In this document: piece after piece, positions 8,486 to 10,763 of the stretch
Numbering within the stretch: position 1 is the stretch's first letter
How the letters are laid out: each line of letters starts with the position of its first letter
UHGV virus genome: UHGV-0236088
Source of the DNA: a virus
Direction: 5' to 3' (one strand)
DNA length: 14,359 nucleotides
The notes under the pieces: generated by a model
What the model was told of the DNA's origin: nothing
The model's database searches: none
What the model saw: the letters and a program-made list of their open reading frames with translations, nothing else
Translations under genes and position numbers: made by a program

Positions 8486-9250
8486 TCAGTCCGGTAAAAC
8501 GCGGTTAAGCGTAGTACGATTGATGGCCCGGTCGTTAGCCAGGAATACAGCACGGGCAAAGCCGCGCGGCGTTAGTGAGCGGATCATCTTAGTGCGTTTC
8601 GACTTTCCTCCTAACTTCGCGTGCTGTTTGCTGTCTTCCCATTCATCCGGCATAGGTACAGGCCGGAATAGCGGCTGCTTAAATCCATTCCCGCACCAGA
8701 TACAAGTTTTCTTCGTGTATGCGTCGCGGTCGGCGATGTATTCCGGGAAAGCAGGATGTTTGTCGTCTTCCGGCAGGTAGCCACCGTAAGCGCACGGATT
8801 GAAGATAAAATCCGGCTTACGCCATAACGTTGACAGTGCGCCCACCGGATTTTCCACCATCCACGGGACGTGATACATGTCAGCCAGCGTTTCTACCAGT
8901 TTTGCGTTATATGCCGCCTTCACCTGGAAGTCAGGATCTTTTTCACGCTTGCTGGCAAACCAACGAGCGCCGGACACGGCTAGATGGTCGCATGGCGGGA
9001 AGGCCAGAATAATGTCAGGATCTGGATAAACAGACAAATCAGGGGAGAACATCACCAGGAAATGGCTGTCAATCCATACGTTAACGTATTCAATATTCGG
9101 ATGAATGATTTTTACGCCTTCATAGTCGCCGTGGTTAGCGCCGTCATAGTTGAAGCAATAACACTTATAGCCAGCGTCAGCCCAATCTTTAACGGCGTAC
9201 CCGCTGCCGTCGTACAACGACCACACCACCCAATTTTTAAGCCCGCTCAT
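8486..9250 (-). CDS. C5-cytosine DNA methyltransferase-like protein (short, atypical motifs)
   Basis: 254 aa. Motif I-like SLYDGSGYAV, followed by AGYKCYCFNYD; motif IV-like AFPPCDHLAVSG (PPC where PCQ is usual); motif VI-like MVENPVGALS (ENP where ENV is usual). GAGGG RBS. ATGA overlap with the upstream gene. Confidence 0.5.
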   Translation of the reverse strand: MSGLKNWVVWSLYDGSGYAVKDWADAGYKCYCFNYDGANHGDYEGVKIIHPNIEYVNVWIDSHFLVMFSPDLSVYPDPDIILAFPPCDHLAVSGARWFASKREKDPDFQVKAAYNAKLVETLADMYHVPWMVENPVGALSTLWRKPDFIFNPCAYGGYLPEDDKHPAFPEYIADRDAYTKKTCIWCGNGFKQPLFRPVPMPDEWEDSKQHAKLGGKSKRTKMIRSLTPRGFARAVFLANDRAINRTTLNRVLPD

Positions 9251-9750
9251 TTTCTGCCCTCAAACGTAAAATAGCGGCGCATGATGATAGTGATCACCGT
9301 TACCGCTGCCATTTTTGAGATGAATTGAATAGCTGATATTTCCGGCATAAATGCCATAAACGATAGCGTGGGAAAAATTAACGCATCGCCGATAGCTGAA
9401 GCTATATTTGCAGGCCAGCGTTTCGAATCGAAATCACCAGGTAAAACACGGTAAACGCCGCCAGAAATAAGCGCACCGGAAACAACCGCAACGAATGACG
9501 CGATCGCCACCATTCCTGCATCATAGTTTATCAGCACCGTAATTGCGCCAGCGGCGGCGCATGTTGTAGCCGACCATTTCAGGCCGCCGTCATATAACAA
9601 GAAGTCACGGATCATCATATTGACACACACTGCGGCTACCGTGGTGATCGGAATTACCCACGGGCCACAGTGGTTAACAATAAGATTGATGATCACGAAA
9701 ACGGCGACATAAACGCAGGCTAATAACCTGTCAATTGTCACCCTTTTCAT
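9247..9750 (-). CDS. Multi-pass inner-membrane protein, about 167 aa; family uncertain
   Basis: Start set at ATG 9750 (MKRVTIDRLLACVYVAVFVIINLIV...). Four to five hydrophobic segments. The ORF-track start at 9792 is a TTG with no RBS. Confidence 0.45.
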   Translation of the reverse strand: MKRVTIDRLLACVYVAVFVIINLIVNHCGPWVIPITTVAAVCVNMMIRDFLLYDGGLKWSATTCAAAGAITVLINYDAGMVAIASFVAVVSGALISGGVYRVLPGDFDSKRWPANIASAIGDALIFPTLSFMAFMPEISAIQFISKMAAVTVITIIMRRYFTFEGRK

Positions 9751-10030
9751 TTGGATCGTACCTCTTATCACGAATAGCTTCAGCTCTATCAAACTTCAAA
9801 TCAAGTCGAGTTGAAATGCAACCACATTGAGGGTTAAGCATAGAAGGCGGCAATCCCTTACAACTGGTTATAGCTTCATCTTTTATTAATCCACCATTCA
9901 GCGGCATATCAAAAACAGCCTGTTTCTTTCTTTGTTCTTCCTCACGTTCCGTTAATATTTGCTCAGCTTTTAGCGCGTTATAGCTAATTAAATCAATTAG
10001 TGTGTCTGTCGGATCGCTGTTATTGCTCAA
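9731..10030 (-). CDS. Hypothetical protein, 99 aa; TTG start or downstream part of a TGA-interrupted gene
   Basis: In the same reading frame as the 10073-10231 ORF, separated only by a TGA at 10075-10073 and 14 sense codons. GAGG lies 5 nt before the TTG at 10030. Confidence 0.35.
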   Translation of the reverse strand: MSNNSDPTDTLIDLISYNALKAEQILTEREEEQRKKQAVFDMPLNGGLIKDEAITSCKGLPPSMLNPQCGCISTRLDLKFDRAEAIRDKRYDPNEKGDN

Positions 10031-10072
10031 AATAGCCTCTAAACGCGCCTCCTTGAGACAAATTAGCAGATC

Positions 10073-10231
10073 TCATACATCAAGCGTGGTTAAATCTGCC
10101 CCCTTCTTAGCGTTGTAAATAGTGGCTATTTTTGGCGCTGATTTTTCCTCTTTTTTGTCGTAGCCGTTTTGCTTACCTCTTTGCTCTATGGTTTCTGATG
10201 CAAGTCTTAATAAATCTGCTGCCTTAGTCAT
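10073..10231 (-). CDS. Small protein, 52 aa; possibly the N-terminal part of a TGA-interrupted gene
   Basis: ATG at 10231 overlaps the stop of the methyltransferase gene. Translation MTKAADLLRLASETIEQRGKQNGYDKKEEKSAPKIATIYNAKKGADLTTLDV then TGA. Confidence 0.35.
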   Translation of the reverse strand: MTKAADLLRLASETIEQRGKQNGYDKKEEKSAPKIATIYNAKKGADLTTLDV

Positions 10232-10763
10232 TATTTGCGCCTCTCGCGTATAGCTCTTTACGTGTTATCTGCGTGAAAATACATTCATGTCTGCACCGTG
10301 GATGCCAGATCAAGAACAAGCTCCCTTTATTGTTTCCGCTTGCTGGTTTCCCTGTCGCGGCATTTATAAAAGCCAGCCGCCCGCGCGTAATTAATCGGCA
10401 TTCGTTTGCCGTCTCCACGCCGTTCATAAACCAGTTAACAGAAATGTCAGCGGGCAATAACATTACACAGCCAATGTGATTTCGTTGATGTTCAAGCGCC
10501 GCCTTATCAACGAATGGCCCCGGATTAGAATATGGCGGATTCATCCAGACATACTCACCAGGCATCGCCACCGCTCCCCACGGATAATGGAGCGTGTCCA
10601 TTTCTTCGGTTATATATCGCGGTATTAATGCGTTTGCCTTGTTTGCCGCCACATCCGCGACGAATTCGAATTCCAGATCCATTCCTCTAAAAACAGGTTT
10701 CGGCGTCTGCCATAGGTCTTTTATTTCTTTCGGCGTGTTGCTGCCGCCGTAATCATTTTTCAT
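10224..10763 (-). CDS. Phage Dam-family DNA N6-adenine methyltransferase
   Basis: 179 aa. WQTPKPVF near the N-terminus and the catalytic NPPY (VWMNPPYSNPGPFV) are the signature of the small phage Dam family (T1-type). AAGGGGG RBS. Confidence 0.8.
   Translation of the reverse strand: MKNDYGGSNTPKEIKDLWQTPKPVFRGMDLEFEFVADVAANKANALIPRYITEEMDTLHYPWGAVAMPGEYVWMNPPYSNPGPFVDKAALEHQRNHIGCVMLLPADISVNWFMNGVETANECRLITRGRLAFINAATGKPASGNNKGSLFLIWHPRCRHECIFTQITRKELYARGANND

Follow-up and report, generated by a model that had tools for sequence, protein, structure and literature searches.

A premature TGA codon in the DUF6378 gene of mEp021-like gut coliphages, a probable loss-of-function allele

Nonsense and frameshift pseudogenes are an ordinary feature of the accessory genes of prophages. 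In Q-beta a UGA is read as tryptophan at low frequency to give a longer product, the A1 extension of the coat protein; there the stop is conserved and the extension essential. The stop that is described here differs from that of Q-beta A1 in lying inside a domain, in not being conserved outside one haplotype and in coexisting with plain knock-outs. UGA is the leakiest stop codon of E. coli, where it is read by tryptophan tRNA in competition with RF2, and reporters in E. coli K-12 put the background level of such read-through at ~2% for 37 °C and 4% for 25 °C (PMC10570021). The present locus resembles such leaky termination in that UGA replaces a tryptophan codon, and a leak would therefore restore the wild-type protein, but it has no conserved context, structure or stop conservation that would suggest enhanced or selected read-through.

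Described counterparts of the gene itself are mEp021_31 (AXN54150.1) and CDS0099 of phage MagusPhagus (XNS39425.1), both of which lie at the same position, between Dam and a protein with six predicted transmembrane domains, are 82-83% identical to the gene studied here at the nucleotide level and have the same single DUF6378 domain, whilst a further protein, P0123, is 100% identical to its product apart from W53. The locus differs from mEp021_31 and CDS0099 in having TGA for TGG at codon 53, which leaves ORFs of 52 and 99 aa. As in ordinary prophage pseudogenes a single-base lesion has struck a seemingly non-essential gene of the early region, and both this gene and the methyltransferase nearby have sister lesions in the form of homopolymer frameshifts. 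Unlike the genes of one decaying prophage, the TGA allele is present on phage-sized contigs (one carrier contig, at 54.7 kb, has the size of a whole phage) and on several mosaic backgrounds, and it therefore circulates; a further difference from ordinary prophage pseudogenes is the TTA (Leu) allele, which is probably a pseudo-revertant of natural origin.

Genomic setting

The window, by which we mean the whole stretch of 14,359 nucleotides that was analysed (from virus genome UHGV-0236088), is 100% identical to a metagenome scaffold in ENA (ERZ28626709 MURP18-1_SAMN09278192 scaffold_620). A Logan contig of run SRR7351976, probably a run of sample SAMN09278192, likewise matches it at 100%. Judged by its similarities, the locus belongs to a temperate coliphage of the human gut of mEp021-like (mEpimmI) type, of which it makes up the early, nin-like region. 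The mEpimmI phages are a Nus-dependent group from human faeces (PMC11893012); the group itself is defined by its immunity region, and the window is placed in it on the nucleotide similarity and synteny of its early region, which is 86-93% identical over 1.6-4.6 kb to MagusPhagus, mEp010, mEp554, mEp021, mEp515, mEp013 and mEp044. Along the minus strand the order is small ORFs, Dam, DUF6378, membrane protein, a PHROG-757 DNA methyltransferase, NinG, RusA and a Q-like antiterminator, and the same order is found in mEp021, mEp010 and related phages. A scan of genome contigs based on Dam returned only an unrelated Glaciecola locus.

The coordinates of the features are collected in Table 1. The membrane protein downstream starts at an ATG 20 nt short of the DUF6378 gene's end, with its own AGAGG upstream; it has no match in Pfam or NCBIfam, and its sole match is to PHROG 4899, a family of unknown function. 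Of the genes in the module it is also the best conserved, being unbroken in all 46 related loci, where its identity is 96-99%. The 254-aa methyltransferase that follows it matched no Pfam family, and it is frameshifted, stop-containing or absent in ~8 of the 46 related loci.

Table 1. Features of the locus and alleles of the DUF6378 gene (window coordinates).
Feature	Position	Strand	Basis or carriers
Ancestral single DUF6378-domain gene, 166 codons, broken at codon 53	9731-10231	-	PF19905 match; homologs of 161-170 aa
Premature TGA, codon 53, from TGG (Trp) via G-to-A at 10073	10073-10075	-	DNA alignment, 85 loci
N-terminal fragment ORF, 52 aa; helices 1-2 and first residues of helix 3	10076-10231	-	AF2 helix limits
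Bridging segment, 14 sense codons D54-I67, in neither ORF; most of helix 3	10031-10072	-	AF2 model
AAGGAGG, Shine-Dalgarno look-alike, coding for K60-E61-A62	10048-10054	-	Sequence, homolog alignment
C-terminal fragment ORF, 99 aa, TTG start; helix 4 and variable low-confidence tail	9731-10030	-	Translation
Dam-type N6-adenine DNA methyltransferase, upstream neighbour	10224-10763	-	Pfam PF05869, E = 1.9e-51
Predicted membrane protein, 167 aa, downstream neighbour	9247-9750	-	mEp021_32 annotation '6 transmembrane domains', PHROG 4899
DNA methyltransferase, 254 aa	8486-9250	-	PHROG 757, E = 4e-88; cytosine DNA methyltransferase in mEp021 annotation
Frameshift allele +A, A6 run	10156-10151		Includes complete E. 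coli chromosome CP164219.1
Frameshift allele +G, G5 run	10103-10099		
Frameshift allele -G, G5 run	10103-10099		
Frameshift allele -T, T4 run	10032-10029		
Flank type A with TGA			Window, L004, L007, L009
Flank type B with TGA			L005, L008, L010-L012

Two open reading frames and one domain

The minus strand has a 52-aa ORF (10231-10073) and a 99-aa TTG ORF (10030-9731) in one common frame, and both have been annotated by gene callers. The former opens with an ATG at 10231 and ends ...GADLTTLDV before the TGA at 10075-10073, 14 in-frame sense codons follow (DLLICLKEARLEAI, 10072-10031), and the latter then runs from its TTG (10030-10028) to its own terminator, a TGA at 9733-9731. The first-pass annotation, made from the sequence of the window, had described two in-frame ORFs parted by a TGA and 14 sense codons, and every coordinate that it gave checked out; it was also correct that the downstream ORF has TTG and no ATG as its start, the earliest in-frame ATG after the premature stop being codon 109. 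The AAGGAGG motif that it had picked out as the strongest ribosome binding site lies where it was placed (10054-10048), but its proposed role did not stand, as it is 17 nt 5' of the TTG and is coding sequence (codons K60-E61-A62) that the DNA alignment finds unaltered in uninterrupted homologs. A distance of 17 nt exceeds the normal limits of Shine-Dalgarno spacing. A weaker Shine-Dalgarno-like GAGG (10039-10036) is found 5 nt 5' of the TTG.

When the two ORFs are joined with tryptophan at position 53, the translation matches PF19905 with 30.3 bits against a cut-off of 27.1 (residues 7-90, positions 2-79 of the 81 in the profile), in keeping with the 31.9 and 34.9 bits of two homologs, and the match is to a single domain that spans the stop. 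Annotated relatives have one unbroken gene of 165-170 codons at the position of the two ORFs (mEp021_31, mEp010_43 and MagusPhagus CDS0099), and more than 120 uninterrupted homologs of 161-170 aa have TGG (Trp53) in place of the TGA of the window. Among 5.8 billion proteins a search found 242 relatives, and the 120 of these that are listed are 133-170 aa long and nearly all named 'DUF6378 domain-containing protein [Escherichia coli]'. With 1.84 billion cluster representatives and a profile search the family extends to over 3000 proteins, mostly stand-alone and ~90-100 aa long. Since PF19905 matches residues 7-90 as one domain and all homologs are continuous at this point, the sequence comparisons indicate that the two ORFs are one gene. 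In the alignment of homologs that the first-pass annotation had called for, the homologs are uninterrupted, and an arrangement of two genes with independent starts was found in none of them. The frame through the DUF6378 domain is interrupted in the window by the TGA at codon 53, the locus is a disrupted rather than an intact member of the family, and 9731-10231 should be annotated as one disrupted DUF6378 gene and not as two hypothetical proteins.

An AlphaFold2 (AF2) model built on a 128-sequence alignment has helices at residues 4-21, 31-43, 49-69 and 75-107, with a block-mean pLDDT above 90 over most of residues 1-100 and lower values at 21-30, followed by a C-terminal tail that is modelled with low confidence and is also variable in sequence; a model from a shallow alignment was poor (pLDDT 56). 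The conserved columns of the family are R18, E29, R/K30, S31, N40, W53, L59, K60, R63, D76, D80, Y84, L87 and E90, and the window holds every one of them except W53, where the stop stands. They fall on either side of the stop and within the bridge: R18, E29, K30, S31 and N40 are carried by the 52-aa fragment, the invariant L59, K60 and R63 are encoded by the bridging segment, and D76, D80, Y84, L87 and E90 belong to helix 4 in the 99-aa fragment.

Seven relatives (L043, L044, L047, L065, L067, L069 and L079) have a shorter gene of 110 or 135 aa downstream of Dam. These shorter versions keep the whole N-terminal domain and have lost or replaced the variable C-terminal tail, and the tail of DUF6378 proteins therefore looks dispensable or modular.

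Alleles of the DUF6378 gene

In the DNA alignment codon 53 is TGG in MagusPhagus, mEp021 and mEp010 and TGA in the window, a difference of one transition, and over 85 fetched loci it is TGG in 67, TGA in 11, TTA in seven and TTG in none. At the protein level W53 is kept by 124 of 128 close homologs and, among 147 distant representatives, by 125 (85%), and it is invariant in alignment A5. Codon comparison thus identifies TGG as the ancestral codon. Median dN/dS in intact homologs is 0.12 over codons 1-99, 0.13 over codons 1-52 and 0.10 over codons 54-99, values that describe the intact homologs only, as the TGA alleles are all identical over the gene and make a dN/dS within their own lineage impossible. 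By this measure the gene is normally under purifying selection, and what the stop interrupts is therefore a normally functional gene.

The exact 52-aa product is encoded on at least 11 contigs in Logan, ENA and JGI, from different runs and assemblers, and it is adjoined by the same 99-aa ORF in nine of the ten contigs shown. Some of these assemblies may share one sample; allowing for that, the number of distinct genomes with the allele is still at least five or six. Over its 501 nt the gene shows 100% identity among the carriers, the phages themselves range from identical down to 94.7% identity over 13.5 kb with mosaic differences, and the TGA is found on two flank haplotypes (Table 1), of which type B differs at gene coordinates -128, 596, 1162 and 1194. 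No complete E. coli genome has exactly this haplotype from end to end of the gene, the highest match being 95%. Taken together the contigs indicate that the TGA allele is real and naturally circulating and not a sequencing error.

In L013:386-2465 (JGI 3300029307, Ga0167511_109121) the TGA allele is present for the first 319 nt of the gene, after which the sequence runs into an ORF for the large subunit of a class I ribonucleotide reductase (PF02867, PF00317); a chimeric assembly is the probable cause and a rearrangement a possible one. In L008:123-2058 and L010:2-517 the place directly to the left of the 206-aa phage gene, which in other relatives is taken by early genes of the phage, is occupied by genes that do not look like those of a phage. 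In L008 these comprise OsmC, an ABC-transporter ATPase and a 180-aa ORF, and in L010 an unannotated 172-aa ORF only; the left flanks of both may come from the remnant of a prophage or from chimeric assembly.

Within a 90% identity cluster codon 53 is W, stop or L on an otherwise identical protein. By index blocks L53 (P0121), with 186 blocks that include E. coli chromosomes, is the most frequent state of the haplotype, compared with 47 for W53 (P0123) and 103 for the 99-aa ORF (P0122), counts that mirror sampling and clonal expansion and not independent events. The codon for L53 is TTA in all seven loci examined (L014-L019 and L042), and it sits on the exact type-B flanks of the TGA allele with one base of difference in 1.9 kb. 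One substitution separates TTA from TGA and two separate it from TGG, and the TTG that would be an intermediate between TGG and TTA was not seen in the 85 loci. The most parsimonious order of events would be TGG to TGA to TTA, and with TTA lying on the TGA haplotype and nearer to TGA than to TGG, L53 is probably a natural pseudo-revertant.

The 99-aa ORF P0122 is found downstream of five different upstream lesions. Besides the stop there are four further frameshift alleles, all with TGG at codon 53 (loci L030-L036, L038-L040 and L045), which occur in isolate genomes as well as metagenomes; the four, all in homopolymers, are independent of each other. To these can be added a sample of 46 IMG/VR loci that was anchored on Dam and not chosen on the state of the DUF6378 gene, in which the DUF6378 N-terminal domain is frameshifted in two, each time by +G in the G5 run and each on a haplotype of its own; L53 is found in one and TGA in none. 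The DUF6378 gene is broken less often here than the 254-aa methyltransferase (2/46 against ~8/46), and on these two frequencies sporadic loss of accessory genes is normal in this phage group. Most of the lesions lie in homopolymer runs, so that mutation bias together with weak selection is sufficient to account for them and adaptive on/off switching is not required.

Explanations for the premature stop

We put at about 0.85 the probability that the window carries a segregating nonsense allele, W53* (TGG to TGA), of one accessory DUF6378 gene, with ordinary loss of function. This reading is carried by the lesion itself, its TGG ancestry, the presence of the allele in many assemblies, the lack of recoding signals and the architecture of the domain, each of which the comparisons demonstrate. 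A nonsense mutation was one of three options offered by the first-pass annotation and it is the one borne out by the homologs, which have TGG at codon 53 and are uninterrupted. The stop cuts a four-helix domain of ~100 residues at the start of helix 3, with translation ending after 52 residues. Were ribosomes to restart at the TTG, 42 nt downstream, their product would be without helix 3, L59, K60 and R63, and as these invariant residues and their helix are missing from the pair, the two ORFs cannot rebuild the domain between them. Full-length protein would be made only through unprogrammed background misreading of the UGA by tryptophan tRNA. As such a leak would insert the ancestral tryptophan, the allele may be a strong hypomorph and not a null; we infer either a knock-out or, at the most, such a hypomorph. 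The DUF6378 gene would accordingly seem dispensable, at least sufficiently so for the allele to persist and to spread by recombination among mosaic relatives. Against plain neutral decay it can be said that the allele is fairly widespread and that TTA is found on the same haplotype, and the state of the codon may matter for fitness.

An 81-nt fold around and downstream of the TGA has a free energy of -18.8 kcal/mol, with z = -0.41 compared to shuffles, and an Rfam scan at the TGA gave no match at E <= 1; no stimulatory structure or known element, SECIS included, was found there. Neither is a stop conserved at codon 53 among relatives, TGA being found in 11 of 85 loci and on one haplotype. In the region as a whole TGA terminates 16 of 44 called genes, all 79 tryptophan codons are TGG, no other gene has an internal TGA, and TTG starts are used by three of 44 genes. 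Reassignment of UGA to tryptophan, as in a table 4-like code, was rejected on the terminators, the tryptophan codons and the lack of other internal TGA codons, and selenocysteine or another structured recoding was rejected as there is no fold beyond chance, no Rfam match, and tryptophan rather than cysteine in the homologs.

That the TGA is an error of sequencing or assembly, with a true TGG and an intact gene, might be thought from the single base involved and from the window being a metagenome scaffold, and it was another of the options of the first-pass annotation. It is effectively refuted, and can be given hardly any credence, as at least 11 contigs that stem from different runs, assemblers and archives (Logan, ENA and JGI) share the identical TGA, as it occurs on two flank haplotypes and in phages that have diverged by 5% elsewhere, and as the derived TTA allele is most simply explained by a real TGA. 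The probability that the 52-aa and 99-aa ORFs are two genuine, separate genes with their own starts is close to nil, for the arrangement is conserved in no homolog, the AAGGAGG (17 nt) and GAGG (5 nt) upstream of the TTG that would speak for it are coding sequence conserved in intact genes, TTG starts are rare (3/44), and the two ORFs between them lack helix 3 and its invariant L59, K60 and R63; that gene callers annotate both ORFs is the other point on its side. The last option of the first-pass annotation, a programmed and selected UGA read-through that would give the 52-aa product and the full-length 166-aa product in a set ratio, found no support and must be considered very unlikely. In its favour UGA is the leakiest stop in E. 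coli and tryptophan tRNA would restore the ancestral residue (PMC10570021). The allele also persists in nature, and the stop is followed by a G and has an acidic residue at -2. In the older literature a next-base G and an acidic -2 residue are not among the strongest termination contexts. What speaks against a programmed event is that the TGA is limited to a single haplotype whilst other family members encode tryptophan directly, that the fold (z = -0.41) and Rfam provide no stimulatory structure or known RNA element, that TGA is a working terminator in 16 of 44 genes, that the same gene haplotype bears four frameshift knock-outs, by which plain inactivation is tolerated, and that a sense revertant, TTA, exists, which would be unexpected were the stop selected.

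Adaptive inactivation and repair, in which loss of DUF6378 would be favoured in some hosts and its regain in others, for example through toxicity to lysogens or the triggering of host defence, is unlikely but accords with several of the observations above: five independent lesions (W53*, +A, +G, -G and -T) are found on one nearly invariant haplotype, the index blocks divide into 103 for the disrupted 99-aa ORF, 47 for W53 and 186 for L53, and TTA is one step from TGA on an identical flank haplotype. Set against it, the block counts are shaped by sampling and clonal expansion, homopolymer runs hold four of the five lesions, for which mutation bias may be enough, only two of 46 loci are broken in the unselected sample, fewer than the ~8 of the methyltransferase, and NCBIfam and PDB, in which the protein has no match, give no function, toxicity or link to defence. 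In its more specific form, as fluctuating selection with repeated knock-out (W53* and slippage in A6, G5 and T4) and repair of TGA to TTA (Leu53), the proposal has only a slender chance of being correct. Were it so, the TGA, leaky to tryptophan, would be an intermediate state of low dose and not a dead gene, and a possible reason would be that the product is costly or sensed in some hosts and useful in others.

Under the preferred reading of an ordinary nonsense allele, an apparent split gene and candidate for read-through resolves into a clean negative. The TGG/TGA/TTA series and the four frameshifts illustrate how, in natural populations of gut phages, a gene is knocked out and probably pseudo-reverted, and the widespread DUF6378 is marked as probably dispensable yet normally under purifying selection (dN/dS ~0.12). 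Function was sought for the family by several routes. In PHROGs the joined protein matches phrog_9871 (unknown function), phrog_474 and phrog_1167, and the 'phosphofructokinase' label of the latter two is unsupported by any match in Pfam, NCBIfam or PDB. Searches of the PDB by sequence and by profile found no relatives, only spurious helical matches, NCBIfam had no match to the DUF6378 protein, Foldseek with the DUF6378 model returned nothing at E < 0.001, BFVD returned only other DUF6378 proteins, and Pfam scans found no second domain in ten longer members of the family; Pfam, PHROGs, NCBIfam, PDB, the AF2 model and BFVD yielded no functional assignment of DUF6378. The probable dispensability of the gene, together with the purifying selection on it, could guide a search for its role beside the phage Dam methylase.

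As to that neighbour, the stop of Dam overlaps the start of the DUF6378 gene (ATGACTAA, 10224-10231), and in BFVD a 348-aa viral protein that is named Dam (A0A8S5SUM2) matches the DUF6378 model (Foldseek, E = 5.3e-6), which together with the overlap suggests a fusion of Dam with DUF6378 and a functional link between the two.
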